Shown: in pieces, positions 1-39,993 of the stretch | Numbering within the stretch: the first letter of the stretch is position 1 | Layout of the letters: every line of letters starts with the position of its first letter | Source: Deltaproteobacteria bacterium | Lineage (GTDB): Bacteria > Myxococcota_A > UBA796 > JAFGLY01 | Direction: 5' to 3' | Assembly (NCBI GenBank): GCA_016927815.1 | Contig: JAFGLY010000170.1 | Location: 4,740-68,739 of the forward strand | DNA: 64,000 nt | Notes under the pieces: model-generated | Told to the model about the DNA's origin: nothing | Seen by the model: the letters and a program-made list of their open reading frames with translations, nothing else | The model's database searches: none | Position numbers and translations under genes: made by a program

Positions 1-98
1 TGTCGCTGGTGGCACCGTCCAGGCCCTCTCGATCCCGACCGGCCGGGCCGATCCCACGCGGAGCGCCCTAGCGCGTTCGATGCGGGCGCCGTGGGGGT

Positions 99-773
99 TC
101 AGCCGTCGCTGCCGTCGCAGTCCTGGTCGATCCCGTCGCCCTTGGGGTCGTCGGCGCCGGGGTGGATGTCCGGGTCGCTGTCATCGCAGTCGTCGCCGCC
201 GGCCGTGATCGCGTCGCACCCGTCACCGTCCGCGTCGTCGTCGCTGCCTCCGCTGCAGTCCTGGTCCACGCCGTCGTACCAGGTCTCCTCGGCGCCCGGG
301 TGGACGCTCGCGTTGAAGTCGTTGCAGTCGTCGCCCTCGGGTGCGGCTTCGTTGCGGTAGCCGTCGTCGTCGGCGTCGTCGTCGGTGGTGCCGTGGAGGT
401 CGAGCGAGACGACGCCCCCGGAGCCATCGTGGGCGACCTCGAGCACGGCGGCGGCCGGATCGAAGTCGGTCGGGGTGTAGGTCACCACGAGGTCGCGCGA
501 GGCGTGGGCATCGAGCAGCGCTTCTCCGGGCGTGACGGCGAAGCGTTCGTCGTTGGAGTCGAGATCGACGTGGAGAACGCCGTAGCCGGCGTTGTGAAGG
601 ACGACGGTGGCGGAAGCCTCGCGCCCGAAGGGAACGTCGTGGATGTCCAGGACGTCGCAGGCACCGGTGTCGGGCTCGCACGAGAGTTCGGGCCGCCCGA
701 TCCTCGAAGGGTAGACGTGCGCCTGGGGTCCGCACGCGACAGAGAGGAGCACAACGAGGAGGACGGCGCGCAT
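99..773 (-). CDS. Secreted lipoprotein: N-terminal beta-sandwich (choice-of-anchor-D-like) plus two Cys/Asp-rich putative metal-binding (MopE-type) repeats
   Basis: ATG at 773. Signal peptide MRAVLLVVLLSVAC with lipobox LSVAC. C-terminal repeats CNDFNASVHPGAEETWYDGVDQDC and CDDSDPDIHPGADDPKGDGIDQDCDG fit the C-x-D-x-[DN]...HPGA...DG[IV]DQDC pattern. Confidence 0.7.
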   Translation of the reverse strand: MRAVLLVVLLSVACGPQAHVYPSRIGRPELSCEPDTGACDVLDIHDVPFGREASATVVLHNAGYGVLHVDLDSNDERFAVTPGEALLDAHASRDLVVTYTPTDFDPAAAVLEVAHDGSGGVVSLDLHGTTDDDADDDGYRNEAAPEGDDCNDFNASVHPGAEETWYDGVDQDCSGGSDDDADGDGCDAITAGGDDCDDSDPDIHPGADDPKGDGIDQDCDGSDG

Positions 774-848: not shown

Positions 849-856
849 GGGCAGGG
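849..856 (+). other. GGGCAGGG octamer (GGGNAGGG, KOPS-like class) pointing toward the candidate dif
   Basis: Exact GGGCAGGG on the + strand, 10 nt left of the dif-like 28-mer. The same octamer occurs on the - strand at 944-951. Confidence 0.3.
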
Positions 857-866
857 CGGATCCAGA

Positions 867-894
867 ACGTCTGATAAGATATATTATGTAAACT
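867..894 (+). other. dif: Candidate dif (XerC/XerD chromosome dimer resolution site)
   Basis: ACGTCTGATAA|GATATA|TTATGTAAACT. The right arm is identical to the XerD-side arm of B. subtilis dif and 9/11 to the E. coli arm TTATGTTAAAT. The 6-nt spacer is A/T-rich. The site is an isolated AT island in the intergenic gap between the nth stop (928) and the lipoprotein start (773). xerD lies 0.7 kb away. Confidence 0.65.
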
Positions 895-927
895 AATGCG
901 CAGGCGCGCCAAGGTACCCGGTACCCA

Positions 928-1578
928 TCAGGGATCGGCGCGTCCCTGCCCCACCGGGCACCAGGACCGCATCGGGCAGGTCTCGCACGGCGGACGACGC
1001 GCGGGGCAGCGGTAGCGACCGAACAGGACGCCGCGGTGACCGAACGCGTTCCAGGCGTCCCGGGGCACCAGGTCCATGAGGATCCGCTCCACCTTCTCGG
1101 GCGACGACTCCTGGTGCCAACCCCACCGCCGCGTGACCCGGAAGACGTGGGTGTCCACCACGACCCCCTCCGCAATCCCGAAGGCCGTGCCGAGCACCAC
1201 GTTTGCCGTCTTGCGGGCCACACCCGGCAGCGCCACGAGCGCGTCCATCTCGCGTGGCACGATGCCGGCGTGGCGCTCCAAGAGCGAGGCGGCCGCGCCC
1301 CGGATGGAGCGGGCCTTGGAGCGGAAGAAGCCCGTGGAGTGGATCACCTGCTCCACCTCGGAGGGGTCGGAGGCCGCGAGGGCCCGGGCATCGGGCCAGC
1401 GCCGGAACAGCTCGGGCGTGACCGCGTTGACCTGCGCATCCGTGCACTGGGCGGACAGGATCGTGGAGATCAAGAGCTCGAAGGCAGAAGCGTGGACGAG
1501 CTCGCAACCGGCGTCCGGGTACAGGGACGCCAGGGCGTCGAGGATGGCCAGGACGTTCTCGGGGCGGTGGGACGGCAT
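928..1578 (-). CDS. nth: Endonuclease III (DNA glycosylase/AP lyase)
   Basis: HhH-GPD core ILSAQCTDAQVN...LPGVARKTANVVLG. C-terminal 4Fe-4S motif CPARRPPCETCPMRSWC. ATG at 1578 (MPSHRPENV) gives 216 aa. The track extension to 1707 is rejected. Confidence 0.9.
   Translation of the reverse strand: MPSHRPENVLAILDALASLYPDAGCELVHASAFELLISTILSAQCTDAQVNAVTPELFRRWPDARALAASDPSEVEQVIHSTGFFRSKARSIRGAAASLLERHAGIVPREMDALVALPGVARKTANVVLGTAFGIAEGVVVDTHVFRVTRRWGWHQESSPEKVERILMDLVPRDAWNAFGHRGVLFGRYRCPARRPPCETCPMRSWCPVGQGRADP
944..951 (-). other. GGGCAGGG octamer on the minus strand pointing toward the candidate dif
   Basis: The plus strand reads CCCTGCCC. It converges with the 849-856 copy on the dif-like site. 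It lies inside the 3' end of nth. Confidence 0.3.
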
Positions 1579-1615: not shown

Positions 1616-2542
1616 CTATCGACCCCTGGGGTGGTGGCGGCCATGGATCTCCTTGAGCCGCGCCTGGGCGACGTGGGTGTAGATCTCGGTGGTGGAGATG
1701 TCGGCATGGCCCAGGAGCACCTGCACCACCCTCAAGTCCGCCCCGCCCTCGAGCAGGTGCGTGGCGAAGGAGTGGCGCAGGCGGTGCGGGGTCACCGCGT
1801 GTCGGATCCCCGCGACCCGGGCCCAGTGGACGATCCGCTTCCACGCGTTCTGCCTGGACATCTTTCGTCCGGTCCGCCCCAGGAACAGCGTCCGGCTGCG
1901 CTGCTGGGGATCCAGGAGCGTCCGGCCGTCGGCGAGCCAGGTGTCCAGGAGGGTCGTGGCCCGCTCACCGAGCGGGACCACCCGCTCCTTCCCGCCCTTG
2001 CCGCGGATCCGGAGGTAGCCCGCCCTCAAGTGGACGGCCTCGAGCGGCAGCGACACCACTTCGCTCACCCGCAGCCCGGTGGCGTACAGGAGCTGGAGCA
2101 GGGCCGCATCGCGCAGGCCGAGCGGCAGGTCCGTCGGATCCGGCGCTCCGAGGAGCGCCTCCACCTCGGACAGCGAGAGCACGTCCGGCAGCGGTCGTGC
2201 TGGCCGGGCGCCCTCGACCAGCAGGGTCGGATCCTCCCCGATGACACCTTCCTCTAGAAGATACTTGAAGAATTGTCGGATCGACACGCGGTGGCGGGCC
2301 AGGGAGCGCCCCGAGAGGCCCGCGTCGAGGAGGCCGGCCAGGTGCCCGTGGACGTCTTCCCGGGTGACGCGCGCCGGATCCTCCAGACCCCGCTCCGCCT
2401 GGCACCAGGACGCAAACCGCACGAGGTCGCGGTGGTAGCTCTCGAGCGTGTTGCGGGAAAGACCCCGCTCGACGCGCCCACGGCCGAGGAATCCCTCGAT
2501 GGCGAGTTCGAAGGGCGCGGTCCCCTCCCCTGCCCGGCTCAT
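1616..2542 (-). CDS. xerD: Tyrosine recombinase XerD
   Basis: [51 protein letters not shown] and the C-terminal [13 protein letters not shown] resemble E. coli XerD. ATG at 2542 overlaps the amidase stop (ATGA). 308 aa. Confidence 0.85.
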
Positions 2543-6361: not shown

Positions 6362-7621
6362 CTATCCCCGCACCATCCGGACGGCCTGGAAGGCGTCCTC
6401 GTCGTCCTGGGGGGGAGCGCTCGTCCATGCGGCCTCGATCGCCAAGAACGGGTGGTCGGCCAGGAAGGCCGCCACCACCTCCGCCCCTTCCTCGGGCTCC
6501 GGGCTGCAGACCGCGTAGACCAGGCAGCCGCGGCGAGCCAGGCACCGGGCGGCCGCCCGGAGGATGGCCCCTTGCCTGGCGGCGTTTCGGGTGAGATCCT
6601 CGGGGGAGCGCCGCCAGCGGATCTCCGGGTGCCGCCGCATCGTCCCCAGCCCCGAGCAGGGCGCGTCCACCAGCACGGCGTCGAAGGACTCCACGAGGTC
6701 GTCCGGAGGGCCGTCCTCCCAGTCGTGCACGCGGAGATCCACGGACAGGCCCAGGCGTGTGGCACCCTCGGCCACCCGGGCCAGACGGTGGGCGTCGAGA
6801 TCCACCGCGAGCACCCGAGCGCCCCGGGCGGCCAGTCGAAAGGCCTTGCCTCCGGGTGCCGCGCACGCGTCCAGCACGCGCAGGCCAGCGGGTACGGGGA
6901 CCAGGTCCGCAACGGCCACGGCCGCGGGATCCTGGACCCAGAACCACCCCTCCCGCCATCCGGGCAGCTCCGTCACCGGTCCTGGTGCCCCCCCGATCCA
7001 CAAGACGTCCGGAACCGCCCTGCCGTTGGCACGCGCTTCGCGTACCTCCAGGCCCGCGTCCGCGAGGGCGCCCGGCAGCCGAGGGTCCCGGGCTACGAGG
7101 GCCAGCGGCGCCGGCTCGTTGCTGCGTCGTGCCCACGCCGCGGTCGCCTCCGACCCGTACCGCGCCTCCCACCGGTCCAGGATCCAGTCCGGGTGGGACA
7201 GGGCGTCCCGATCCGAGGGGGTCGGCGCCTCGGCGTGGCGCCTCAGCACGGCGTTGACCAGCCCCGCGGCGCGCGGAGCGCCCGCCTCGCGGCACAGCGT
7301 CACGGCCTCGTGCACCGCGGCCCGGGGGGGTGCGGTATGGGAGAGGATCTCCCACAAGCCGATCCGGAGCACCTCTCGGACCACGGGTTCGAGACGATGC
7401 AGGGGCCGGTGCGCCAGGGGCCCGAGCATGGCGTCCAGGGCGCGTTGCTGACGCAGGACTCCTCGAACCACGTTCCAGGCCAGGGCCCGGTCGGATCCTC
7501 GCTCCGGCGCTGTCCGGGCCAGCGCCTCCTCGGCGAACGCACCGCTCTCCACGGCCAGCAACGCGTCCAGAGCCGCTCGGCGGCCCGGTGAGACCGAGCC
7601 GGACCGGCGTGCGGGGGTCAC
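6362..7621 (-). CDS. rsmB: 16S rRNA (cytosine-C5)-methyltransferase RsmB/Sun family
   Basis: NusB-like N-terminus. SAM motif DACAAPGGK. Catalytic motifs DAPCSGLG and YAVCSPEPEE. The proposed GTG at 7621 overlaps the upstream gene stop (GTGA). The track extension to 8065 is rejected. Confidence 0.8.
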   Translation of the reverse strand: MTPARRSGSVSPGRRAALDALLAVESGAFAEEALARTAPERGSDRALAWNVVRGVLRQQRALDAMLGPLAHRPLHRLEPVVREVLRIGLWEILSHTAPPRAAVHEAVTLCREAGAPRAAGLVNAVLRRHAEAPTPSDRDALSHPDWILDRWEARYGSEATAAWARRSNEPAPLALVARDPRLPGALADAGLEVREARANGRAVPDVLWIGGAPGPVTELPGWREGWFWVQDPAAVAVADLVPVPAGLRVLDACAAPGGKAFRLAARGARVLAVDLDAHRLARVAEGATRLGLSVDLRVHDWEDGPPDDLVESFDAVLVDAPCSGLGTMRRHPEIRWRRSPEDLTRNAARQGAILRAAARCLARRGCLVYAVCSPEPEEGAEVVAAFLADHPFLAIEAAWTSAPPQDDEDAFQAVRMVRG

Positions 7622-8670
7622 TTCGCGTCCAGGTCCGTGAGCTCGGCGTCGATGATGCGGGTGAACGACTCCAGGGCTCGAGCGCCCTTGATGCGGTAGC
7701 CGTTCACGTAGAACGTGGGCGTGCTCCGGACGCGCAGGCGGCGGGCTTGCTGCTCGTCGAGGGACACCTTGCTCGCGGTGAGTTCCGAGGCGCGGTCCTT
7801 CTCCCACCGGGCGATGTCCAGGCCGACCTCCCGGGCGATCGCCTCGAGCGTGGTCTCCTGCTTCAACTCCCTCTGCCGCTCGAAGAGGAGACGCTTGTAC
7901 TCCCAGAACCTGCCCTGGTTGTGGGCCGCCATGGCTGCGAGGGCCGCTGGGCGGGCCGCCTTGTGGGTGTTGATGGGGTAGGACTTGTAGACGAACCGGA
8001 CCTTGTCGCCGTACCGATCTCGGATCTCGGTCAGGGTCTTCTGGGCGCGGGCGCAGTAGGGACACTGGAAATCGGTGAACTCGACGATGGTGACCGGCGC
8101 GTCGGCCGGGCCCTCGGTGGGGGAGGACCCCACGTCCACCCGTGCCCAGGGCCGTTCGAACGTGAGGGCCTGGGTGATGGCGATCCGATCCAGCCCCTGC
8201 TTGGAGAGGCGGACGGCCCGCGCCGCGAGGATCGGCATGTTCTCGCAGACGGGGCGCTCCAGGAGACAGATGGCGAAGCTCTGGCCGTTGTCCACGCAGG
8301 GCTCGCAGGGACCCGCAATCGTGTTGAACACCGCCATGAGTTCGTCGCGGGCCCGGGGCGGCAGGTCCGTGAGCCCGGGCACCTGGAGATCGGCGGCCGA
8401 GAAGGCCGTGGGCCTCACCGGGGGGATCTCGTCCGCCTGCTTCTTGGGCTTCTGGACCTGGGTCTTCTCCAGCGCCTTGGCCTGCTCGTCCAGTCGGGCC
8501 TGGAGGGTGGCCCGAGCCGCATCGTAGCCTGCATTATAGGCGATATAGGCTGCAATTCCTCCGCACACGACCGCCGCGACGAGCGCGACGGACAGCGCGA
8601 AGACCGCGCCCTTGGGCGCCGAAGGGGCGTTCGGATCCGGGGTCACCAGGCCTCCCTCATGTCCAGACAT
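7618..8670 (-). CDS. Membrane-anchored DsbA-family thiol:disulfide oxidoreductase
   Basis: Thioredoxin fold with FQCPYCARA active site. N-terminal TM helix AVFALSVALVAAVVCGGIAAYIAY. ATG at 8670 (MSGHEGG). Confidence 0.8.
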   Translation of the reverse strand: MSGHEGGLVTPDPNAPSAPKGAVFALSVALVAAVVCGGIAAYIAYNAGYDAARATLQARLDEQAKALEKTQVQKPKKQADEIPPVRPTAFSAADLQVPGLTDLPPRARDELMAVFNTIAGPCEPCVDNGQSFAICLLERPVCENMPILAARAVRLSKQGLDRIAITQALTFERPWARVDVGSSPTEGPADAPVTIVEFTDFQCPYCARAQKTLTEIRDRYGDKVRFVYKSYPINTHKAARPAALAAMAAHNQGRFWEYKRLLFERQRELKQETTLEAIAREVGLDIARWEKDRASELTASKVSLDEQQARRLRVRSTPTFYVNGYRIKGARALESFTRIIDAELTDLDAK

Positions 8671-8938
8671 CGTCCGTGCCGCCGGGGAGCGGAGCACCGG
8701 AGGGACTCGATCGGCCGCGCCTCGCGAGGAAACCGACGAGGATCCCCACCAGGAAACCGCCGAGGCCGGTCCACAGGAGAAGCCACGGGACCGACGCCGG
8801 GGACGAGAGGTGCCACATCCCGAACCCGAGGTTCAGGGACAGGTCGGTCACCCGTGCCTGGTTCTGCACGATGAAAAGGGCCAGCAGGAGGCCGACGATG
8901 ACGAGAACGAGGAGCCAGGCGACGATCTTGAAGCGCAT
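8657..8938 (-). CDS. Small membrane protein, LapA/DUF1049-like
   Basis: MRFKIVAWLLVLVIVGLLLALFIVQNQ plus a second TM helix WLLLWTGLGGFLVGILVGFL. ATG at 8938 preceded by GCAGGAGGATCGG. 93 aa. Confidence 0.55.
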   Translation of the reverse strand: MRFKIVAWLLVLVIVGLLLALFIVQNQARVTDLSLNLGFGMWHLSSPASVPWLLLWTGLGGFLVGILVGFLARRGRSSPSGAPLPGGTDDVWT

Positions 8939-9032: not shown

Positions 9033-10955
9033 CTATCCCTCTTCCAGGAGAGAAGGCTCGACCGAGGGCTCGACGACGGGCTCGACGACGGGCTCGACGA
9101 CGGGCTCGACGACGGGCTCGACGACGGGCTCGACGACGGGCTCGACCGAGGGCTCGACGACGGGCTCGACCGAGGGCTCGACGACGGGCTCGACGACGGG
9201 CTCGGTCGCCGCCTCCGGCGCCCTCGTGGCCCCGGCGCCCGAGATCTTGCGGGAGATATCGCCCATGATGTCGCCCAGTCGTGCGGACGACTCCCCTTGA
9301 CGCGCGATGAAGTCCGAGACGGAACTGGTGTCCACGTTCCGGTCCTCGGCTCCCTTCTCGGACAGGCTGATCTTGCGGTCGTGTCCGTCGATGTTGATGA
9401 TCTCGGCCACGATCGGCTGTCCGACCTGGTACTGGTTCCCCCAGTCGTCGCCACCCTTGGAGAGTTCGGAGAGGTGCACGAGGCCCTCGACGCCCTCCTC
9501 CAGCTCCACGAAGATGCCGAAGTCCACCTTGTGGACGAGCGTGCCCCTCACGATCTGGCCGAGGAAGTAGCGGGCCTGTACCGAGAGCCATGGATCCTCG
9601 GAGAGTTGCTTGATGCCCAGCGAGAACCGCTCGTTCTCCTTGTCGATGTTGAGCACGCGGGCCTCGACCTCGTCGCCCTTCTTGAAGCGCTCCGCGGGGT
9701 GCTTGATCCGCTGGCCCCAGGACAGGTCCGAGATGTGGACCAGGCCGTCGATACCCTCCTCGATGCCCACGAAGATGCCGAAGTCGGTGACGTTGCGGAT
9801 CTTGCCCGTCACGATGGTCCCCACCGGGTACCGCTCCTCGACGACGTCCCAGGGGTTGGGCTCGAGCTGCCGCATGCCCAGGCTGATCCGCTTGTTCTCG
9901 ACGTCCACCCCCAGGACCTTGGCCTCGACGATGTCCCCGAGGTCGAGGACCTTGGAGGGGTGCTTGATGCGCTTGTTCCAGGTCATCTCGGAGATGTGGA
10001 CCAGACCCTCGATGCCGTCCTCCAGCTCCACGAAGGCGCCGTAGTCGGGAATGGAGACGACCTTCCCGCGCACGATGGCTCCCACCGGGTACTTGTACTC
10101 GACCTCCTCCCACGGATCGGGCCGGATCTGCTTGAAACCGAGGCTGACGCGCTGGGAGTCCTTGTCGAACTTGAGGATCTTGACCTCGATCGTGGCCCCG
10201 ATCTCGAACATCTCGGAGGGGTGGTTGATCCGGCCGTAGGACATGTCGGTGATGTGGAGGAGCCCGTCGATGCCACCGAGGTCCACGAAGGCGCCGTAGT
10301 CGGTGATGTTCTTGATGACGCCCTTCATGATGGAGCCGACCTGCAGGCGCTTGACGGTCTCGGCCCGCTTGCTCTCGCGCTCCTGCTCGAGGAGCACTCG
10401 GCGGGAAAGAACGATGTTCCCTCGCTTCTTGTTGAACTTGATGATCTTGAACTGGAAGGTTTCGCCGATCAGCTTGTCCAGGTTCTTCACCGGGCGCAGG
10501 TCCACCTGGGATCCGGGGAGGAACGCCTTGACGCCGATGTCCACCTGCAGTCCACCCTTGACCCGGCCGGTGATGGCGCCCGTGACGGTCTCGTCGCGGT
10601 CGACGGCCTTGGAGATCTCCTCCCAGGCCTTCATGAGGTCGGCCCGTTCCTTGGACAGGGTCAGCTGGCCGTCTTCCTGGTCCATGGCGTCGAGGTAGAC
10701 GTCCACCACATCGCCCAGAGCGATCGTGATCTCGCCCTCGGGGCTCACGAACTCCCTCCGGGGAATGATGCCCTCGGCCTTGAAGCCGATGTCGACGGTG
10801 ACGAATTCGCTGCCGACATCGATGACGGTCCCCTTGACGACCGAGTGCTCCTGGACCGCGCTTTCGGCGAGGTGGGAGTCGAACATCGCCTGGAACTGGT
10901 CGCGGTCGATCTCGTTGAGGGGTGCATCGAGGAGGGCGGGTGTATTGGATGCCAT
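9033..10955 (-). CDS. rpsA: 30S ribosomal protein S1 with repetitive C-terminal tail
   Basis: Six S1 domains (VVKGTVIDV..., GAITGRVKGG..., GVIKNITDYGAFVDL..., GKVVSIPDYGAFVEL..., GKIRNVTDFGIFVGI..., GTLVHKVDFGIFVEL...). ATG at 10955 (MASNTPALL). 640 aa. Confidence 0.95.
   Translation of the reverse strand: MASNTPALLDAPLNEIDRDQFQAMFDSHLAESAVQEHSVVKGTVIDVGSEFVTVDIGFKAEGIIPRREFVSPEGEITIALGDVVDVYLDAMDQEDGQLTLSKERADLMKAWEEISKAVDRDETVTGAITGRVKGGLQVDIGVKAFLPGSQVDLRPVKNLDKLIGETFQFKIIKFNKKRGNIVLSRRVLLEQERESKRAETVKRLQVGSIMKGVIKNITDYGAFVDLGGIDGLLHITDMSYGRINHPSEMFEIGATIEVKILKFDKDSQRVSLGFKQIRPDPWEEVEYKYPVGAIVRGKVVSIPDYGAFVELEDGIEGLVHISEMTWNKRIKHPSKVLDLGDIVEAKVLGVDVENKRISLGMRQLEPNPWDVVEERYPVGTIVTGKIRNVTDFGIFVGIEEGIDGLVHISDLSWGQRIKHPAERFKKGDEVEARVLNIDKENERFSLGIKQLSEDPWLSVQARYFLGQIVRGTLVHKVDFGIFVELEEGVEGLVHLSELSKGGDDWGNQYQVGQPIVAEIINIDGHDRKISLSEKGAEDRNVDTSSVSDFIARQGESSARLGDIMGDISRKISGAGATRAPEAATEPVVEPVVEPSVEPVVEPSVEPVVEPVVEPVVEPVVEPVVEPVVEPSVEPSLLEEG
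9054..9209 (-). repeat. 13 tandem copies of a 12-nt unit (GGGCTCGACGAC / GGGCTCGACCGA on the + strand) encoding (EP[VS][VL])13 at the S1 C-terminus
   Basis: Read directly from the sequence. Protein tail EPVVEPVVEPSVEPVVEPSVEPVVEPVVEPVVEPVVEPVVEPVVEPSVEPSL. Confidence 0.9.
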
Positions 10956-11163
10956 GGGATGGGAACCTGGGGTGCCGGCTGTCGGCGTCTCCGGTGAGGG
11001 AGAGGAATGGGGAAAGCGGCCGGAAAGGCGGTCCAAGACCCTCCTGGAAACCCGTCCGGCCGGGTGGCGGATCCCGTCGGAGGATCCGCGGGAGCGCCTG
11101 CCCTGGAGGCGTCCGGCGAGGTATCCGGGGGGATTGACCCCGTCAACTGCGGAATCCGCTTGA

Positions 11164-11838
11164 TCAGGCGCCCCTCGTGCGGGCCTCCGCCACGACGAGG
11201 TCTGCGGCCTGCTCGGCGGAGATCCCTGTGGTGTCGAGATACCAGGCATCCGGCAGGCGCACCAGGGGGGCCGTGTCGCGGCCCCGATCCTGTGCATCGC
11301 GTGCCTCCATCTCGGCCTCGATCTGGTCGAGGGGGATCTCCTGGCCGCGCTGGCGCATCTCCTCTTGTCGCCGCCGTGCCCGTTCGGAGGGGGATGCGTC
11401 CAGGAACACCTTGAGCTCGGCGTCCGGGACGATCACCGATCCCACGTCGCGTCCGTCCATCACCACCCCGCCTCGCGCTACCAGGGCGCGCTGGGCGTCG
11501 AGGAGCGCCGCTCTCACGGCGGGCAGCGCGGCAGCCCGGGACGCTGCGTACCCGATGGCCTCCGGACGGAGCGCGTCGGTGACGTCCTCCCCGTCCATGC
11601 GGACCTGAAGGCGATCCCCGTCCCAGGCCACCTCCAGGTGCAGCGCTCGAGCCAACGCGCCCACCGCCGGGTCGTCCTCGAGGTCCAATCCTCGCCGCAG
11701 GGCCGCCAGGGCCACGGCCCGGTACATGGTGCCCGTGTCCACCCAGGCGTAGCCGAGTCGCCGGGCTACGAGGCGTGCGACGGTGCCCTTGCCCGATGCG
11801 GCGGGGCCATCAATGGCGATGCGGAGGAGCCGGGGCAT
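11164..11838 (-). CDS. cmk: Cytidylate kinase
   Basis: P-loop IAIDGPAASGKGT at the N-terminus. MDGRDVGSVI. Conserved cmk-rpsA synteny. ATG at 11838. 224 aa. Confidence 0.9.
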   Translation of the reverse strand: MPRLLRIAIDGPAASGKGTVARLVARRLGYAWVDTGTMYRAVALAALRRGLDLEDDPAVGALARALHLEVAWDGDRLQVRMDGEDVTDALRPEAIGYAASRAAALPAVRAALLDAQRALVARGGVVMDGRDVGSVIVPDAELKVFLDASPSERARRRQEEMRQRGQEIPLDQIEAEMEARDAQDRGRDTAPLVRLPDAWYLDTTGISAEQAADLVVAEARTRGA

Positions 11839-12566
11839 GGGCTGCCTCCGTATGGGGGCCGACCCGGCGCGACAAGGCCCCAAGGATCGACGGGTCTGAT
11901 GTGCGCGACCGCGCCCGAGCCCTCTACGCGCGCCTCGCCGTCGAGGGTCGTGACCCGGATCAAGCGATCCACCGTGGGGTCGACCACGACGCCCAGCACC
12001 ACGGGTTCGAGCCCACCCCACCGGACGTCGTAGGAAGCGGCAGGGACCCGTGCGTGCACGTTCCCCTCCACCGAGGCGAGCACCACGCGCTGGGGGATCC
12101 GGATCCAGGAGGCTTCTACGGGACCTCGGACGACCTGCAGCATCGCCTCCTGGGAGGTGAGGCCTTTGGCCTCGATCGATCCGTTTCCCACGACGACCGA
12201 CAGAGAACCGAGTGGGCCGGAGAGGTGGGCCTCGCCCTCGCCCAGGTCGGTCTCGATCGCCACGCCCGCGGGAACGTCGAGCTCCAGGGCTCCGCCGCAC
12301 GGCACGGGGGTCCGGCACACGAGGGCGATCTCGAGGATCTCCGCGTCGCGGTGGTGATGGATCGCGATCGGCGCTTCGGGGCCCCAGGCCTCGGCGTGCA
12401 CCCGGACGGCGTCCGAGCCGCCCGCTCGGACACGGATCTCCCCCGAGGCCCAGCGCACGCGGATGCGATCCACGCGGCCGGCCTCCACGAAGGAGCGATC
12501 GACGTGGAGGCTCCCGCACGCAAGGAGCCCCAGCAGGGTCAGCAGGCTGGAGGGGACGTGCGCCAT
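11766..12566 (-). CDS. Lipoprotein with DUF4097-like (putative adhesin beta-helix) repeats
   Basis: ATG at 12566. Lipobox LLACG. Repetitive G-x-[IV]-x-[VA] strands (ASGEIRVRAGGSDAVRVHA..., GNGSIEAKG..., VEGNVHARV). The 3' end overlaps cmk by 73 nt in another frame. Confidence 0.65.
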   Translation of the reverse strand: MAHVPSSLLTLLGLLACGSLHVDRSFVEAGRVDRIRVRWASGEIRVRAGGSDAVRVHAEAWGPEAPIAIHHHRDAEILEIALVCRTPVPCGGALELDVPAGVAIETDLGEGEAHLSGPLGSLSVVVGNGSIEAKGLTSQEAMLQVVRGPVEASWIRIPQRVVLASVEGNVHARVPAASYDVRWGGLEPVVLGVVVDPTVDRLIRVTTLDGEARVEGSGAVAHIRPVDPWGLVAPGRPPYGGSPCPGSSASPLMAPPHRARAPSHAS

Positions 12567-12652
12567 CGGGTCGTTGCCTCGGGAGTCTGCATCTCAGGAC
12601 ACCGGACGGGGGAGGATGGGAATCCTTCAGGACGAATTTTTCTTAATGTAAG

Positions 12653-12680
12653 AATGTAGATATGTCTATGGACGTGTCAA
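12653..12680 (-). promoter_or_regulatory. Sigma70-type promoter candidate TTGACA-N16-TACATT for the lipoprotein-cmk-rpsA string
   Basis: On the minus strand, TTGACA is at 12680-12675 and TACATT at 12658-12653, inside a conspicuous AT-rich island about 85 nt upstream of ATG 12566. Inverted repeat GAATCTC-N3-GAGATTC lies just upstream at about 12691-12707. Confidence 0.45.
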
Positions 12681-12764: not shown

Positions 12765-14285
12765 TCAGGCGCCCGAGGCGACCTCGTACACGTGGATGTA
12801 CCGGTTCCCCTCGATGGGTACGCGGCCGAGGTGGGTCGTTGCCAGGGAGAGCTGTTGGCGGCCCACCCCGGTGACCAGCACGCGACCCCGGTGCCCCGAC
12901 AGGTTCATCAGCCAGCGGGCCAGGTAGAAGGGACCCGCCAGCTCCCACCCCTCCTCGGGGCGGCGGGTGTCCGAGCGCAACCGGGCCACGCCGGGTGAGA
13001 CGCCAGCGGAGATCCGGTACCCCTCTTCGACCGCGATCCGGCCGAACTCGAGGGCGGTCGTGACGGCCTGCAGGATCGGCTCGCGGAGTCCTTCCGTCGC
13101 GAGCCAGACCACGAGCAGGGACCGCTCGCCGTGCTCCCAGATCTGCCCTTCGGCGTCTTCCACCACCGCCCGCCAGGTCGCGAGGAGGCTCGGGAGCGTG
13201 CTGCGGGGCGCGGCGATGGAGCGGGGGGGCATGTGCGCCTCTGCGGCGAGTACCACCAGGGCGCCCGGGGGCAGGGTCGGACCGCCGAGGAGGGGCTCGC
13301 GGTCCTTCTCCTCCGGACGGTCGGACCGTTCGAGGACCTCCCGCACGTACCGGGCGAGATCGCCGTGCGTGGCCCGGTGGCCCTCGCGGACCATCAGGAC
13401 CGAGAGGGCGTCCAGCATCTCGGCGGTGGTGGGGAATCGGTCCTTCGGGCGGCGGGCGAGGGAGCGGCGCACGATGGCCTCCAGATCCTCGCTGACCTCG
13501 GGCCGGATCGCGCGGATGCCCGGTACCTCCGCGCGGCGCACCCGGTGGAGCGTCTCGTCCCGGGTACGGGCCTTGAACAGGCGGCGTCCGGTGAGGAGTT
13601 CGAAGAGCACGATCCCGAGGCTGAACTGATCGCTGCTGGCGTCCAGATCCCGGCCCTCCACCTGCTCCGGGCTCATGTAGGCGTACTTGCCCCGCACGAC
13701 CTTGTGGGTGCCCCGGGCCTGCATGGCGGCCCGGCTGATGCCGAAATCGGTGATCTTCACCTCTCCCGCGAAAGACACCAGGATGTTCTGGGGAGAGACG
13801 TCACAGTGGACGATGTGGAGGGGCTGGCCCTCTTCGCCGGTCTTCTCGTGGGCGTACCGGAGGGCCTCGAGCACCTCGCACGCCACGCGCAGGGCCAGGG
13901 CGACCGGAACGGGGCCCATGCGGCGGGCCCGGGCCAGGATGCGGGAGAGATCCAGGCCGTGCACGTACTCCATGGCGATGTAGTACGCCCCGTGGGCCTG
14001 CTCGAACTCGAAGACCTGGACGATGTTGGCGTGGTGGAGCAGGTGCGCGATGTGCGCCTCGTAGGTGAAGAGCTGGATGAACTCTTCGTCTCGGGCGAGG
14101 CTGTCCAGGATGCGTTTCACGACGAGGGTCTTCTGGAAGCCCTCGACCCCGTGCGACCGGGCCCGGTAGACCTCCGCCATCCCGCCTGTCGCGATTTTCT
14201 CCAGGAGGTGGTACTTCCCGAAGGCCATGGGCTGGCTGGGCTCGGGCACGCGTTTCTCCACGCGGGGCTCACCCGTCGTCGGCAC
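12765..14285 (-). CDS. Ser/Thr protein kinase fused to a degenerate class III nucleotidyl-cyclase-like domain
   Basis: Gly loop IATGGMAEVY, VAIK-like LVVKRI, catalytic loop HCDVSPQN, DFG, SPE. The C-terminal 170 aa follow a cyclase-homology pattern (LVVLAAEAH..., RISAGVSPGVARL, GPFYLARWLMNLSGHRGRVLVTG) but lack the metal-binding Asp residues. GTG at 14285 is preceded by AGGAGGAGTTAAG. Confidence 0.85.
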   Translation of the reverse strand: MPTTGEPRVEKRVPEPSQPMAFGKYHLLEKIATGGMAEVYRARSHGVEGFQKTLVVKRILDSLARDEEFIQLFTYEAHIAHLLHHANIVQVFEFEQAHGAYYIAMEYVHGLDLSRILARARRMGPVPVALALRVACEVLEALRYAHEKTGEEGQPLHIVHCDVSPQNILVSFAGEVKITDFGISRAAMQARGTHKVVRGKYAYMSPEQVEGRDLDASSDQFSLGIVLFELLTGRRLFKARTRDETLHRVRRAEVPGIRAIRPEVSEDLEAIVRRSLARRPKDRFPTTAEMLDALSVLMVREGHRATHGDLARYVREVLERSDRPEEKDREPLLGGPTLPPGALVVLAAEAHMPPRSIAAPRSTLPSLLATWRAVVEDAEGQIWEHGERSLLVVWLATEGLREPILQAVTTALEFGRIAVEEGYRISAGVSPGVARLRSDTRRPEEGWELAGPFYLARWLMNLSGHRGRVLVTGVGRQQLSLATTHLGRVPIEGNRYIHVYEVASGA

Positions 14286-14320
14286 CTTAACTCCTCCTGC
14301 CCATCGCCCCCGAGGTCGCC

Positions 14321-15094
14321 ATGCCGCTCGATGCCCTCCTGGCCGTCGTGGATCGACTCAGGGGCGAGGGAGGCTGTCCGTGGGATCGGGCCCAGGATGC
14401 CCGATCGCTGCTTCCCTACCTCGTCGAGGAGACCTACGAGCTGGTGGATGCGGTGGAGCGCAACGACGACCAGGCCCAGGCGGACGAGATCGGAGATCTG
14501 CTCTACCTGGTCCTCCTGCTGGTCCGGATCGGCACGGAGTCCGGCGCGTTCGATCTCGAGCGCGTGGAGCGAGGCATCGTGGCCAAGATGGAGCGCCGGC
14601 ACCCGGGCCTCTTCTCGCGGGCGGACCCGGCTCCGGGCGCAGCCCCGATGGGGTCTCAGGAGGCCTGGGAGACGCACAAGGCCGAGGAGCGCGGCGATTT
14701 CCGGTCGGCGCTGGAGGGCCTGCCGCCCCACCTGCCTGCCCTGCTGCGTGCCCACCGGGTTGCCGAGAAGGCAGCCCGGGTCGGATTCGATTGGCCGGAC
14801 CGCGACGGGGTGCTGGCCAAGGTGGACGAGGAGCGGCGGGAGCTGGACGAGGCGCTGGCCTCCACGGACCCGTCCGCGGTGCGTTGGGAGTACGGCGACC
14901 TGCTGCTCGCGCTCGCCAACCTGGGCCGGTTTCTGGGGGTTCCGGGCGAGGATGCGTTGAGGGAGGCGAGCCGGAGGTTCGAGATCCGGTTCCGGGCGCT
15001 CGAGCGGTTGGCCGCCGCGCGGGGCCTGGACCTCCATCGGACGGATCTCGCGGTCTTGGAGCGTCTCTGGCAGGAGGTCAAGGCCGTCGGTTGA
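14321..15094 (+). CDS. mazG: Nucleoside triphosphate pyrophosphohydrolase MazG
   Basis: Tandem MazG domains: GCPWDRAQDARSLLPYLVEETYELVDA..EIGDLLY and RVGFDWPD...EYGDLLLALAN. ATG at 14321. Confidence 0.9.
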   Translation: MPLDALLAVVDRLRGEGGCPWDRAQDARSLLPYLVEETYELVDAVERNDDQAQADEIGDLLYLVLLLVRIGTESGAFDLERVERGIVAKMERRHPGLFSRADPAPGAAPMGSQEAWETHKAEERGDFRSALEGLPPHLPALLRAHRVAEKAARVGFDWPDRDGVLAKVDEERRELDEALASTDPSAVRWEYGDLLLALANLGRFLGVPGEDALREASRRFEIRFRALERLAAARGLDLHRTDLAVLERLWQEVKAVG

Positions 15095-15593: not shown

Positions 15594-16309
15594 GGGGACT
15601 CCGAGGGGGGATTCGAGGGGTAGTGGAGGGTGAACGAGGTGGAACCGGGTCGGGACGAAACCTCGATGCGACCGCCGGCCCCCTCCACGAGGCGGCGGGC
15701 GATGGCGAGCCCCAGACCCGTCCCCCGTCCCGGAGGCTTGGTGGTGAACCAGGCGTCGAACACCCGGGGCAGGTCCGCGGGCGGGATCGTGGGTCCGTCG
15801 TTCTCGACGCGGATGCGCACGGATGCGGGCACGGTGTCGACCGTGACCCGGATCCGCCCCGAGGCCTGCCCCTCCAGGGCGTCGAGGGCGTTCTGCAGGA
15901 GGTTGACGACCACCTGCTGGAGGACCTGAGGGTTGCCGTGGATCACGGGGAGGCCCGGGGCCAGGTCCAGCGTGCAGGCCACGCCCTGGCGTGCGGTCCG
16001 AGCCTCGAGCGTGGCCAGGGCAGCGCAGATCGGCTGATCCACCGGGAAGGGGACCTCCCAGTCGCCCGAGTGCTGGACGAGGCCCCCCTGCGTGGAGAGG
16101 ATCCGCTCCATGCGGTCCACCTGCTCCAGTGCCGTCGCGACGGTCGCGGGGTCGGGTGGCACCAAGGCACGCTCCTGGAGCAGCTGGAGGAGGGCCTTGA
16201 CCGCGAAGAGCGGCTGCCTCAGCTCGTGGACGAGCGTGGCCGAGAGGAGGCCCAGCTCGGCCAGCCGGCCCACCTCCATCCAGGTCCGATCGTCGCGGGT
16301 TTCGCTCAT
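15590..16309 (-). CDS. Soluble sensor-less histidine kinase (HisKA + HATPase_c only)
   Basis: H-box LVHELRQPL, N-box VVNLLQNALDA, G1-like ENDGPTI, F/G2 FDAWFTTKPPGRGTGLGLAIARR. No TM or sensor domain. ATG at 16309 overlaps the upstream stop (ATGA). 239 aa. Confidence 0.8.
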   Translation of the reverse strand: MSETRDDRTWMEVGRLAELGLLSATLVHELRQPLFAVKALLQLLQERALVPPDPATVATALEQVDRMERILSTQGGLVQHSGDWEVPFPVDQPICAALATLEARTARQGVACTLDLAPGLPVIHGNPQVLQQVVVNLLQNALDALEGQASGRIRVTVDTVPASVRIRVENDGPTIPPADLPRVFDAWFTTKPPGRGTGLGLAIARRLVEGAGGRIEVSSRPGSTSFTLHYPSNPPSESP

Positions 16310-19300
16310 GGCGCACCCACCAGGCGGTTGTCCACGGTCACCTCCACCTCGCAGGCCTCCCCCAGGTTCAGGTACGCATCGCAGGCCGCGATCTGCAGCA
16401 CGTAGGCCCCGTTGTCCACGACGATGCCGTCCTGGCCCACACCGTTCCAGATCACCTCGTCCGCGTCCGCGGCTGCGAGGGTCCACCAGGTGTACACCGC
16501 GTCGCCCGCCTCGTCCGTGACCGCCAGGCGCCACCCGTACGGCATGGCGCTGGCGACGACCTCCACGTGGACCTCGTCCGCCTCGGACGTTCCGGGGACG
16601 TCGTCTCCGTCCGGACGAAAGACCGCAGTGTCCGGCGTGCAGTCCAGGACGTCGGGAGCGGTGTCCTCCACCGCTCCGGTGTTCGTGCGGAAGGCCCCGG
16701 TGGTCCCCGACCAGGCGCCGTCGAGCCGGTTTCCCGCGGCGTCCCGCACCTGGGACGACACGACGATCTCGTACACGTCGAGAGAGAGGTCGATGGCGTC
16801 CTCGAGCGTGGCGGTGGCCTGGGTGGCATCGGCCGAGAGCGAGATGTCCGCGATCGCTCGGGCGCCGTAGCTGTCCGAGACGAGGATGCCCGCCGAGGGA
16901 TCCGTGAAGGACGACGACCACATGGCCTCGCTGAACGTCACGGTGACGGTGTCCGTGACGTCGTCGGACGTGCCCCGGGGATCGAGATCCAGGACCACGG
17001 GGCGGGCATTGTCGCCCTGGGCCTCTACCGTGGCCGCACCGATGGCGGTTCCCGTGCCGTTCCCGGCCAGGAGCGTCGCCGTGCCGCCGAAGGCCTCCAG
17101 CGCCACGGACCATGAGACCGTGGCCTCGCCCCCGGCGTCGAGCGTGACCGCGAGCCCGATCCCCGAGGCAGAGGCTCCCGACGTGTACTCGCCGAGGTCT
17201 GCCCGGACGAGCAGGCTGCCGCCGGAAGCCACGTCGCCCGAGCAGTCCCAGGCCGCCAGGTCCACGGGGGTGCTCCCCGTGGTGGCGCTGCCCACGGTGC
17301 GCGTGGTGAAGGTCGGCACCACGGACACCGGCCCGGCCGGCTGCCCGTCGTCGTGGGCCACGTACACGACGGCCTGGGCCAGGTCCCCGCAGGCCTCGGG
17401 CGTGAATGCCGCGACCTCGACCTGGACGGCGACGGGTTCCTCCCACGCGAAGAGGGGGGTGGCACTGGACCCCCGCGTGGTGTTTCCGGCGGAGTCCCAG
17501 AAGCTGTACGTGAGCGAGCTTCCCGTGCTGCCCGAGGCGTCCAGCATGGCGGACGCGCTGCCGGACGCGAGGCAGAGGACGGCCTCGGTCGCGCCGTCCA
17601 CGAGCAGGTCCGCCGTTACGCCACAGTCGTCCTCCAGGACGTCGATGGGCGTGAGAACGCCCATGATGGCGCTCGTTTCGGCCACGGCGATGAGCGAGTC
17701 CGCGACCCCGGGCGTGTCGAACAGGATCTCGCCGCTGGCCTCGCCATCGGTCCAGCTGTCCAGCACCACCCCGGGGGAGAGGGCGAACTCGCTCGTCACC
17801 GACACGACCTCGTCGAAGGTGAGAACCACGTTGCCCCACGCGTCGACCGCCTGGACCCGAACGGTGTAGGGAACGTCCAGGAACGCCCACGGGCGATCGA
17901 GCGAGATGGACAGTGAGGCGGGGTCGGAGGGCACCACGTCGAACGGATCGGAGGTGCCGAGCGAGGCGGCCCCCTGGCTGGCGGTGATCGTGTCGTCCTG
18001 CAGGGCGACGGTGATCGTGACCTCCACCTCGGCGTACCCATCGGGATCCAGGGTGGCCGTCAAGGGGAGCAGCGACCCGGTCTCGTCCTCCAGTTCCACG
18101 TACGGGTCGCTCTGCACGACGTAGGGATTGCCCCACGCATCCGTCCCCTCCAGCCCCACCGGGAAGGAGGCGCCCGCGGACACCTGGATGCCCGGTTCGA
18201 GATCGAAGGAGACCACCGCGAGATCTCCGTTCTGCACGATGAACGGGGTGGTGGTGCCGCTCACGCTCGGATCGAGGTCGTCCACCGACACGGTGAGGGT
18301 CTCCGCGTCCGTGGCCAGGGTCGCGATGCAGGAGAAACGACGGCTGCCGTCCGCTCGCATCACTTCGTCCCAGGTGCAGGTCGGCGTCCCCACACGTCCG
18401 CGGAAGCGATAGCCGTCCACGGATGGATCTGTAGAAATACCGTTTTTCAGGGCATCCTGTGGGGTGACGTCCAGCAGGAAGGGCTCACCGGCCGAGACCG
18501 GTCCCGGGCCCATGCCCACGAGGATCTTCGCCAGCGGACCCGGGCTCACCCCGAAGACCCCGGAGATGCCCTCCAGCCGATCGCTGCCCCGGGCTTGGAC
18601 CTGGTCGTCCGCTCCGGCGATCCATGGCCAGGCGACACAGACCTGGATGCCCTCGGAGAACCCCGGGCAGTCCTGCTCTCCGAGGCCGGCTTCGGGATCG
18701 AGGCCGCCCAGCGTGTCGTACAGGTCCAGTCGGACGTCGCTGCCATAGTCCAGGACCCGGTTCTCCCAGGCGTCCCGGGCGGTGACCACCACGTAGAGGG
18801 GGCTTTGCCCGGCTTCCACGGTGCTCGGGTAGACGGACACACCGTAGGACGAGGGCTCTGCGGGCTCCACCTGGAACCCCGGGCTGGATCCGGAGGTGGT
18901 TCCCGAGGCGAGGATGCGGTTCTCCTCGCAGGCATCGCCGGTGGCGCCGGTGACCGCGATGTCCAGGTCCAGGCGGCCGACCACGTCGACCGTCTGGGAA
19001 AAGCGCCCGCACGCCTCGGTCAACGAGAAACGGCCGATGGCCTCCTCCAGGAGGTTGCCGTAGATGTCGACCATGCGCAGGGTGACCGGGAACGGCTCCC
19101 CGGCGACCGCGGAAAACCCCAGGTACGGAAGGTCGATCGAGACCCCGGCCAGCTCGCCGGGAGTGACGGCGATGTCCACGGAGTCTCCCTCGACGACGGA
19201 GTCCGGCACGGCCGGCTCGACCTCGAGGGTGAGGATCTCGGGGGTCGAGTGGGTGAGCGACACCCAGCCGTGGCCGCTCTCGTCCAGGAACCCGACGACG

Positions 19301-19881
19301 ACCACGCCCTCGTCCACGCTGCCCTGCAGGGCGTCGTCGAGACCCGAGGCGTCCACCTCGAGACCGTGAAGTCGACTCGCAGCGGTGAGGGTCAGGACGA
19401 CCCGGAGAGGCTGGAACACCGGCCGATCCTCGGGGTCCAGGAGGTCGAAGGCCACGAGGAACGGGATGTTCACGTCGAACACGATGCTGTCGAGGTCAAA
19501 GGCGAGGTGGTCCGCTCGGCTGTCCGTGACGGTGAAGGCGTCCGCGAGGACGGCGGACAGGCCCGCGGGCGTGGTGACCCGGAGGGCGTAGAGGCCGACG
19601 GGCAACCCCTCGGGCACGACCGCGGCCAGGGACTCGTAGGAGTCCAATTCCACGCCTTGGAGTGCGTAGGTGCCCTCGGCGCCCTCGAGGCGGACCTGGA
19701 ACTGGCGGTCCAGGCGGCCGCCCTCGTCGCTCGAGGACAGCTCCATCGAGGGGTAGAAATGGCGTCCCCGCACCACCACGTCGGTGCGCTCCCCGTTGTA
19801 TCCCCAATCTGGTTCGGCCCCCTGCACCTCTGGATCCGGCAGGGGCGTCGAACACGCGACGAGGAGGAGGAGGAACGGCAA
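16306..19881 (-). CDS. 1191-aa lipoprotein built of Ig-like (Big/PKD/SbsA-like) modules with a FlgD-Ig-like C-terminus
   Basis: TTG at 19881 preceded by GGGAGA. Lipobox LLVAC. At least five modules carry a D-[AI]-[WY]-[GE]-N motif (VDIYGN, RDAWEN, TDAWGN, VDAWGN, degenerate QDALKN). Other modules: LTYSFWDSAGN (PKD-like), VTVTFSEAMWSSSF (SbsA-like), C-terminal WNGVGQDGIVVDNGAYVLQIAACD (FlgD-Ig-like). Confidence 0.8.
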   Translation of the reverse strand: MPFLLLLVACSTPLPDPEVQGAEPDWGYNGERTDVVVRGRHFYPSMELSSSDEGGRLDRQFQVRLEGAEGTYALQGVELDSYESLAAVVPEGLPVGLYALRVTTPAGLSAVLADAFTVTDSRADHLAFDLDSIVFDVNIPFLVAFDLLDPEDRPVFQPLRVVLTLTAASRLHGLEVDASGLDDALQGSVDEGVVVVGFLDESGHGWVSLTHSTPEILTLEVEPAVPDSVVEGDSVDIAVTPGELAGVSIDLPYLGFSAVAGEPFPVTLRMVDIYGNLLEEAIGRFSLTEACGRFSQTVDVVGRLDLDIAVTGATGDACEENRILASGTTSGSSPGFQVEPAEPSSYGVSVYPSTVEAGQSPLYVVVTARDAWENRVLDYGSDVRLDLYDTLGGLDPEAGLGEQDCPGFSEGIQVCVAWPWIAGADDQVQARGSDRLEGISGVFGVSPGPLAKILVGMGPGPVSAGEPFLLDVTPQDALKNGISTDPSVDGYRFRGRVGTPTCTWDEVMRADGSRRFSCIATLATDAETLTVSVDDLDPSVSGTTTPFIVQNGDLAVVSFDLEPGIQVSAGASFPVGLEGTDAWGNPYVVQSDPYVELEDETGSLLPLTATLDPDGYAEVEVTITVALQDDTITASQGAASLGTSDPFDVVPSDPASLSISLDRPWAFLDVPYTVRVQAVDAWGNVVLTFDEVVSVTSEFALSPGVVLDSWTDGEASGEILFDTPGVADSLIAVAETSAIMGVLTPIDVLEDDCGVTADLLVDGATEAVLCLASGSASAMLDASGSTGSSLTYSFWDSAGNTTRGSSATPLFAWEEPVAVQVEVAAFTPEACGDLAQAVVYVAHDDGQPAGPVSVVPTFTTRTVGSATTGSTPVDLAAWDCSGDVASGGSLLVRADLGEYTSGASASGIGLAVTLDAGGEATVSWSVALEAFGGTATLLAGNGTGTAIGAATVEAQGDNARPVVLDLDPRGTSDDVTDTVTVTFSEAMWSSSFTDPSAGILVSDSYGARAIADISLSADATQATATLEDAIDLSLDVYEIVVSSQVRDAAGNRLDGAWSGTTGAFRTNTGAVEDTAPDVLDCTPDTAVFRPDGDDVPGTSEADEVHVEVVASAMPYGWRLAVTDEAGDAVYTWWTLAAADADEVIWNGVGQDGIVVDNGAYVLQIAACDAYLNLGEACEVEVTVDNRLVGAP

Positions 19882-19899
19882 GGGGTCTCCCAGAGGAGT

Positions 19900-22410: not shown

Positions 22411-22467
22411 GGCGCCATCCTATCGCACTGCCGCCAGACCCCCGGCTCCGATGGGGCCGCGGACCCG

Positions 22468-39707: not shown

Positions 39708-39993
39708 GTCGCACCTGCACTGGACGGTGGCTCGAAACACGGAGGCGCGGGCATTCCCGGGGAAATCCCCACGCGTACGACGATGGGTTCTCATACCACC
39801 CGTTCACGGTCACGGGCAAGACGAGAAACCGGGGAGTCGCGCCGCTCCCCCCGAAGCCCCGGCGGAGGGACGGACGTGGAGCCACCGGCCCTGCCCCCTC
39901 TCCCCCCGGCAGAGGGGGCCGCCGACAGGCACCGGGTGGGGGGCGCCCGCCACCGCCGCCCGCGAACCGCCGAGACGCTCCTCCCCCCGGTCT

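Follow-up and report, generated by a model that had tools for sequence, protein, structure and literature searches.

The dif sites of proteobacteria have been predicted from homology, from a position at the maximum of the GC skew and from their occurrence in a single copy (Carnoy and Roten, PLoS One 2009, PMC2731167, Table 1). In classical systems two recombinase genes serve the dif and lie dispersed over the chromosome, whereas linkage of the recombinase gene to its site typifies the XerS and XerH systems (Carnoy and Roten, PMC2731167). In XerS/difSL of streptococci and XerH/difH of epsilon-proteobacteria the recombinase gene stands beside the site near the terminus, an arrangement that is kept across related species. 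The deltaproteobacterial predictions for Geobacter sulfurreducens (ACGTCCCATAAGATATATTATGTAAAGT), Myxococcus xanthus (AGGTCCGATAACATGCGTTATGTAAACT) and Anaeromyxobacter dehalogenans (ACGTCCGATAATATGGATTATGGTAACT) are each 28 bp long with an 11+6+11 architecture, intergenic, and drawn from a genome with a classical XerD. The same description applies to a 28-mer at positions 867-894 of a 64-kb stretch of DNA (contig JAFGLY010000170.1, hereafter the window) from an uncultured, high-GC 'Deltaproteobacteria bacterium'. This 28-mer is very probably the chromosomal dif of the organism. It is an ordinary site of an already well-known type, and its closeness to xerD, which is clade-specific and uncommon, is its sole unusual feature besides its nearness to the 5' region of a lipoprotein gene.

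Direct reading of the plus strand gives ACGTCTGATAAGATATATTATGTAAACT at 867-894. The site is intergenic and occupies a gap of 154 nucleotides (nt) between the start of the lipoprotein gene (773) and the stop of the endonuclease III gene nth (928). Its two 11-bp arms carry inverted inner ends, ATAA and TTAT, which flank a 6-bp centre. The window as a whole is 70.8% G+C; at only three places in it, the site among them, does a 28-nt stretch contain eight or fewer G or C residues. At up to three mismatches the 28-mer is matched once in the 64 kb, where shuffled sequences give an expectation of 0, and it is the sole place in the window that scores at least 12 out of 18 against the arm consensus of its clade. 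One copy of a dif-like site was likewise found per related locus and one per metagenome contig examined. The first-pass annotation had noticed an AT island in the gap between nth and the lipoprotein gene and had called it a candidate dif of the XerC/XerD type. The island is indeed there and is unique in the window, and the call is supported by its architecture, the match to published dif sites, syntenic conservation, the metagenome family and the adjoining XerD. A second strongly AT-rich island (gaatttttcttaatgtaagaatgtagatatgtctatgg...) is present at 12,620-12,680, between cmk (11766-12593, minus strand) and a Ser/Thr kinase gene (12765-14357, minus strand). It is unlike dif (score below 12/18) and may be a promoter region.

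For comparison with known sites, the B. subtilis dif was taken from PMC3025954 and the E. coli dif from PMC2731167. Identity over the 28 positions is highest with G. sulfurreducens (25/28), followed by Syntrophus aciditrophicus (23/28) and by M. xanthus, A. dehalogenans and Bdellovibrio bacteriovorus (22/28 each); the values for Bacillus subtilis and Escherichia coli are 23/28 and 18/28. The left arm agrees with those of the Geobacter, Myxococcus and Anaeromyxobacter predictions at 9-10 of 11 positions, and the forms common to the window and the deltaproteobacterial predictions are ACGTCYGATAA on the left and TTATGTAAAnT on the right. The B. subtilis site (ACTTCCTAGAATATATATTATGTAAACT) shares the whole right arm (11/11) and five of the six centre positions, but its left arm matches at only 7/11, and the deltaproteobacterial sites are closer. 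The E. coli site has in common with the window the inner arms ATAA...TTATG, the 6-bp centre, 9/11 positions of the right arm and a XerD orthologue, but its left arm matches at only 5/11. The arm and centre identities to these two species that the first-pass annotation had listed are correct. The deltaproteobacterial dif type nonetheless fits better than the two references used there, given overall matches of 22-25/28 and left arms of 9-10/11. Unlike the deltaproteobacterial predictions, the site in the clade of the window lies only 0.1-0.7 kb from xerD.

Seven related lineages of the clade (L001, L002/3, L004/5, L006/7, L088, L211 and L212) were reached via XerD homologues 61-80% identical to that of the window. 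L001 is the nearest at 80%, and the other six lie at 61-65%. All share a gene order consisting of cmk, rpsA, a small open reading frame (ORF), a DsbA-like gene, rsmB, mutS, usually an amidase gene, xerD, the site and the MopE lipoprotein gene. On the stretch from xerD to the lipoprotein gene, each of the seven lineages has a dif-like 28-mer, always in the same orientation. In L001 it is identical to that of the window, amid intergenic DNA that is otherwise unalignable, so that left arm, centre and right arm read ACGTCTGATAA, GATATA and TTATGTAAACT in both. The corresponding triplets are AGATCCGATAA, GTAACA and TTATGTAAAGT in L002/3; TGATCCGATAA, GGGATA and TTATGTTAAAT in L004/5; CGATCCGATAA, GGGATA and TTATGTAAAGT in L006/7; TGTTCCGATAA, GGGATA and TTATGTTAAAT in L088; and AGATCCGATAA, GGGATA and TTATGGTAAAT in L211 and L212.

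The six lineages beyond L001 thus follow the form nnnTCCGATAA-N6-TTATG(T/G)WAAnT with differing centres, and the consensus of the whole clade is nnnTCYGATAA for the left arm and TTATG(T/G)WAAnT for the right. Across all eight lineages, the window included, the blocks TC-GATAAG, A-ATTATG and AA-T are invariant. A 128-nt alignment of six lineages contains 24 invariant columns, all but three of which fall within the 28-mer, and no alignment of the flanks is possible. A Xer recombination site would be expected to show just this combination of conserved arms, a centre of fixed 6-bp length but variable sequence, and freely changing flanks. Assembly GCA_046766155.1 holds both L007 and L088, two versions of the locus on separate contigs with XerD proteins 65% and 61% identical to that of the window, which indicates that this assembly mixes at least two related organisms.

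The same site type recurs far outside the clade. Metagenome contigs from the Joint Genome Institute (JGI) were scanned with the pattern TCYGATAAGNNANATTATGTWAANT, which gave at least 120 matching stretches, and 80 loci were examined. Each of the 80 contains exactly one match, on contigs ranging from 29 to 70% G+C. The exact 28-mer of the window occurs in 11 of them, on contigs of 37-57% G+C, and is the commonest form; 30 of the 80 differ from it by at most one mismatch. Positions left free by the pattern also favour the bases of the window, with A1 in 58, G3 in 69, A13 in 65, T14 in 66, T16 in 71 and C27 in 57 of the 80 loci. As the commonest form of a very widespread dif family, the site of the window is in itself unremarkable. 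The loci with the exact 28-mer, centre included, are L092, L096, L101, L112, L113, L117, L147, L149, L165, L166 and L167. This conservation of the centre across genomes of 37-57% G+C is stronger than the rule of a variable centre suggests.

The recombinase encoded next to the site is a XerD, as the first-pass annotation had proposed. It passes the XerD equivalog model and stays below the cutoffs of the XerC model (295 vs 335 bits) and the XerS model (103 vs 267). Its translation shows the catalytic motifs, including LLGH...IYTH, and is 100% identical to NCBI MBN1337077.1, a protein of a metagenome-assembled genome (MAG) labelled 'Deltaproteobacteria bacterium'. The distance from the xerD stop to dif is 110-729 nt in all eight lineages. 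The nth gene separates the two only in the window and L001; no gene was called in this place in L002, L004, L006, L088 and L212. In L211, 620 nt without a called gene lie between xerD and dif (10945-11566), at the place of nth; this stretch could hold what is left of nth, or a gene that escaped calling.

This linkage was set against a control set of 80 XerD loci from other lineages, taken among the matches listed, with at most 56% identity, mostly from Pseudomonadota and none from the clade. No dif-like core was found within 1 kb of xerD in any of the 80 when 10 kb of flank was searched, and a weak ATAA-N6-TTATG match 3.8-5.8 kb from xerD was seen in three. Conversely, the DNA examined from the 80 metagenome contigs with the dif type of the window at their centre contains no xerD-like gene. 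L089 and L090, whose XerD proteins are 55% and 52% identical to that of the window, have no dif near xerD, and no report of classical xerD-dif adjacency was found in the literature searched. The earlier remark that close recombinase linkage is untypical of XerC/D systems agrees with PMC2731167; the recombinase and the site of the window are classical nonetheless.

Two side observations arose from the more distant loci. In L090, only 2.8 kb separates xerD from a xerC-like tyrosine recombinase gene (7807-8700 and 11475-12410); both have the same orientation, and the xerC-like gene is directly upstream of hslV-hslU. L026 (8833-8860), a Planktophila MAG, and L050 (14125-14152), a MAG labelled Bifidobacterium breve, have in common, at 5.4-5.8 kb past xerD on its downstream side, the sequence CCGTAG(A/G)ATAAGG(G/A)TCATTATGGGCATA. 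This shared actinobacterial motif could be of Xer type or belong to another element.

By homology with E. coli, XerC would bind the left arm ACGTCTGATAA and XerD, encoded 0.7 kb away, would bind the right arm TTATGTAAACT. It is envisaged that two sister dif sites synapse at the division septum, where FtsK, arriving along the DNA, would activate XerD to exchange the first pair of strands at the edges of GATATA. XerC would then resolve the Holliday junction, converting a chromosome dimer into monomers. The order of cleavage and the dependence on FtsK are thus assigned by analogy, and XerC itself would be expected to be encoded elsewhere in the genome.

The orientation of genes around the site is consistent with a position in the terminus region. 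GC patterns at the codon positions place about 16-17 of the 18-19 genes in the interval 928-26319 on the minus strand, pointing toward dif, so the 18 of 19 given by the first-pass annotation was approximately right. A MazG gene, perhaps along with a neighbour, breaks this pattern at about 14.3-15.6 kb. Over the 63 kb on the xerD side approximately three quarters of the coding sequence points toward dif. Orientation switches at about 72-98 in the window, some 0.8 kb to the left of dif, and a convergent junction is likewise present in L001, L002, L004, L006, L088 and L212. In all lineages but L211, whose contig does not extend past the lipoprotein gene, that gene is followed by converging genes on the opposite strand for PQQ-repeat, TPR, PEGA and radical-SAM proteins. 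The identity of the site as dif together with this gene convergence makes a terminus location likely, and the locus most probably marks the terminus region; the exact position of termination would be placed here. The probable terminus of the first-pass annotation is consistent with the gene convergence about 0.8 kb away, while the local GC skew is of no help.

A further argument comes from G-rich octamers resembling the FtsK-orienting polar sequences (KOPS) of E. coli, which point siteward from both sides; octamers of the form GGGNAGGG tend to do the same here. To the right of dif, 18 copies of GGGNAGGG are on the minus strand, toward the site, and seven on the plus strand, away from it (two-sided binomial p 0.043). 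Base composition alone would lead one to expect more copies on the other strand, and a one-sided test against that expectation gives p = 0.003. The minus-strand excess that had earlier been estimated by eye is thereby confirmed by count. Pooled over eight lineages with overlaps collapsed, the counts of the two orientations are 38:26 on the xerD side and 5:15 on the other side (Fisher p = 0.01), a value that overstates significance as the pooled loci are homologous and not independent. The octamer still points siteward where the local gene points away (18:8, small counts from homologous loci). An inversion of octamer polarity at dif, proposed earlier as a check, is therefore seen, but it is modest, with about 63-72% of copies pointing toward the site. 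The two GGGCAGGG copies said to bracket the site are at the positions claimed, the complement CCCTGCCC at 944-951 being the minus-strand copy, but one lies inside the nth coding sequence and neither is conserved in a relative. In addition, the Shine-Dalgarno core GGAGG is part of GGGGAGGG. An unbiased polarity scan of 6- to 8-mers returned as its top words codon-driven sequences (CTGGCC, CAAGGT) and not GGGNAGGG, which is explained by the co-orientation of the genes, and at this scale it does not single out a KOPS motif. The KOPS-type argument for a terminus is suggestive only.

Related G-rich sequences occur at the start of xerD, where (GGGNA)n GGG runs are found in the window (2519-2537, minus strand), L002 (10027-10060), L004 (10019-10050), L006 (about 6735-6770) and L088 (about 10025-10055), and also in L001. 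All of these runs point toward dif and mostly encode Gly-Glu-Gly...Leu-Pro in one frame. The idea that the array is kept in different reading frames, which would mean selection at the DNA level, was rejected since the Gly-Glu-Gly frame is common to most copies; whether selection acts on the DNA or on the peptide is indistinguishable here. The G-rich run is followed, in four of the six lineages, by a C-rich inverted complement (GGGGAGGGG...CCCCTCCCC), and the pair could form a hairpin. On the far side, 1.2-1.3 kb beyond dif, the PQQ-repeat gene encodes the peptide VGEGRYPDLI through GGG-GAG-GGG in five lineages (L001 at about 12827, L002 at about 12375, L004 at about 12504, L006 at about 9222 and L088 at about 12495). 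These codons yield GGG(N)AGGGGAGGGG pointing toward dif, although GGG accounts for only 19-33% of glycine codons. The sequence may be a KOPS-like element or may reflect shared ancestry.

Several observations weigh against a dif at the terminus. On the xerD side the strand that would be leading has an excess of C, with a GC skew of -0.017 to -0.055, and the far side is near 0, so the GC-skew check suggested by the first-pass annotation, applied locally, shows no classical terminus and has a sign opposite to that in E. coli. Third codon positions in the window, L001-L006, L088 and L212 are strongly C-rich, with a coding-sense skew of -0.15 to -0.27, and for this reason the local skew follows codon usage and tracks gene orientation. 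A naive cumulative-skew plot would give an origin-like minimum at the dif locus. A replication-linked component of the expected sign could not be extracted, as both sides of the site gave negative estimates, with the codon bias of individual genes as a confounder. The skew of GGGNAGGG, 0.63-0.72, is far below the 0.91-1.0 of E. coli KOPS (PMC3384302), and the bracketing GGGCAGGG copies are conserved in no relative, their flanks being unalignable. A tblastn search with XerD found no second tyrosine recombinase, and hence no XerC, in the 64-kb window, and FtsK domains were not found among the large window ORFs scanned against Pfam. Finally, an additional promoter role overlapping dif is possible, given -10-like hexamers within a site that lies 37-94 nt upstream of the lipoprotein start.

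Taken further, this last point would make the 28-mer mainly a promoter or operator of the MopE-type lipoprotein gene, with an incidental likeness to dif. The site does lie 37-94 nt upstream of the lipoprotein start in all eight lineages, a tighter spacing than that to xerD (110-729 nt), and one weak sigma-70-like match takes CATAAT within the site as its -10. However, the -35 of this match falls in the non-conserved flanks, and what is conserved is the pair of dif arms around a 6-bp centre that varies, as opposed to two hexamers 17 bp apart. A family spread over 80 unrelated contigs of 29-70% G+C and matching published dif sites at 22-25/28 is also unlike a lineage-specific promoter, which leaves this explanation highly improbable. 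Xer-exploiting elements and plasmids also carry dif-like sites, so a secondary Xer site is conceivable, either the attachment junction of an integrative mobile element exploiting Xer (IMEX) or a plasmid-type resolution site. This general precedent is met by no specific evidence at the locus. There is only one dif-like site in the 64 kb, with no tRNA, other integrase, phage genes or plasmid genes nearby, and the housekeeping neighbours keep their order across eight lineages. With its 6 bp the centre agrees with chromosomal dif and differs from the ColE1-type plasmid site, where it has 8 bp (PMC2731167), and a secondary site is extremely unlikely.

More is to be said for a single-recombinase module like XerS/difSL or XerH/difH, in which XerC has been lost and XerD alone acts on both arms. 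Linkage of recombinase gene and site, the hallmark of XerS and XerH systems (PMC2731167), is seen in eight of eight lineages, against none of 80 control XerD loci and none of 80 control dif loci among the matches listed, and neither the 64-kb window nor the flanks of the relatives' loci showed a XerC gene. On the other hand, the protein scores above the cutoff of the XerD equivalog model but reaches only 103 bits against the XerS cutoff of 267. The site is a canonical dif of 28 bp whose two arms clearly differ, the left one being 9-10/11 identical to those of Geobacter, Anaeromyxobacter and Myxococcus; it was told apart from difSL and difH by the treatment of Carnoy and Roten (PMC2731167), without direct alignment to either. 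In that treatment a classical dif is served by two recombinase genes, unlike the XerS and XerH modules. Spacing between gene and site also varies in the clade, nth has been inserted between them in one sub-lineage, and the 20-kb neighbourhood is syntenic. Loss of XerC in favour of such a module is very unlikely. In a broader form, xerD, dif and the lipoprotein promoter region might constitute a conserved, functional unit at the convergence of the replichores, with XerD made beside its only chromosomal target, or XerCD bound at dif controlling the lipoprotein gene, or XerC lost. This too is unlikely. As the whole 20-kb block is syntenic, the linkage of xerD and dif needs no special explanation, and the insertion of nth indicates that the pair is not a tight module. 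For a chromosomal dif of the classical type, closeness to xerD is probably a gene order inherited from a common ancestor, with no distinct mechanism behind it.

The coordinates of the site and of the features around it are collected in the table.

Table. Features at and around the dif site, in window coordinates.
Feature	Position	Strand	Evidence or remark
PQQ-repeat protein gene, 3' end	3..71	+	Translation SLVAPSRPSRSRPAGPIPRGAP followed by a stop; matches C-terminus of L001 PQQ-repeat protein
MopE-type lipoprotein gene, start 94 nt from dif	99..773	-	ORF; orthologues carry PF11617 (MopE copper-binding motif)
GGGCAGGG octamer pointing at dif from left, KOPS-like, function doubtful	849..856	+	Present; not conserved in relatives
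dif site, 28 bp (ACGTCTGATAA GATATA TTATGTAAACT)	867..894	+	Unique in window; 25/28 to G. sulfurreducens dif prediction
Left arm ACGTCTGATAA, predicted XerC-binding half-site	867..877	+	XerC assigned via homology with E. coli dif
6-bp centre GATATA, putative strand-exchange site	878..883	+	Length always 6 bp; sequence differs within clade
Right arm TTATGTAAACT, predicted XerD-binding half-site	884..894	+	11/11 to B. subtilis and M. xanthus right arms
nth (endonuclease III), between xerD and dif	928..1578	-	TIGR01083 234 bits, cutoff 211.7
GGGCAGGG octamer pointing at dif from right, KOPS-like, function doubtful	944..951	-	Within nth coding sequence; not conserved in L001
xerD, tyrosine recombinase, 308 aa	1616..2542	-	TIGR02225 343 bits (cutoff 329.6), profile positions 3-289/290
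Overlapping GGGCAGGGGAGGG array, 5' end of xerD, pointing toward dif; possibly KOPS-like, uncertain	2523..2535	-	

The neighbours of the site in the window include mutS, an AmiC-type amidase gene, rsmB, rpsA, cmk, grpE and a Mur ligase gene. Housekeeping genes such as mutS, rpsA, cmk, rsmB, grpE and the Mur ligase gene indicate that the DNA is chromosomal and not from a plasmid. No terminator-like site, Rfam match or tRNA was found at the locus, and no other integrase, phage genes or plasmid genes were found near dif. The window also encodes some very large proteins, namely a TPR-rich protein of 1,754 aa and two proteins with Ig-like domains of about 1,200 and 840 aa (34539-39803 and 16306-22419, both on the minus strand). 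Such large genes, together with Ser/Thr kinases and lipoproteins with MopE motifs, are reminiscent of Myxococcota, although the NCBI label reads only 'Deltaproteobacteria bacterium'.

The site provides a landmark for the terminus region of a lineage that is known only from fragmented metagenome assemblies, where it aids the ordering of contigs and coverage-based estimates of growth. The inverted local skew is a warning for the automatic prediction of origins and termini in genomes whose third codon positions are C-biased. More broadly, the occurrence of the exact dif at 37-57% G+C and of close variants at 29-70% G+C points to strong conservation of this sequence across distant bacteria.

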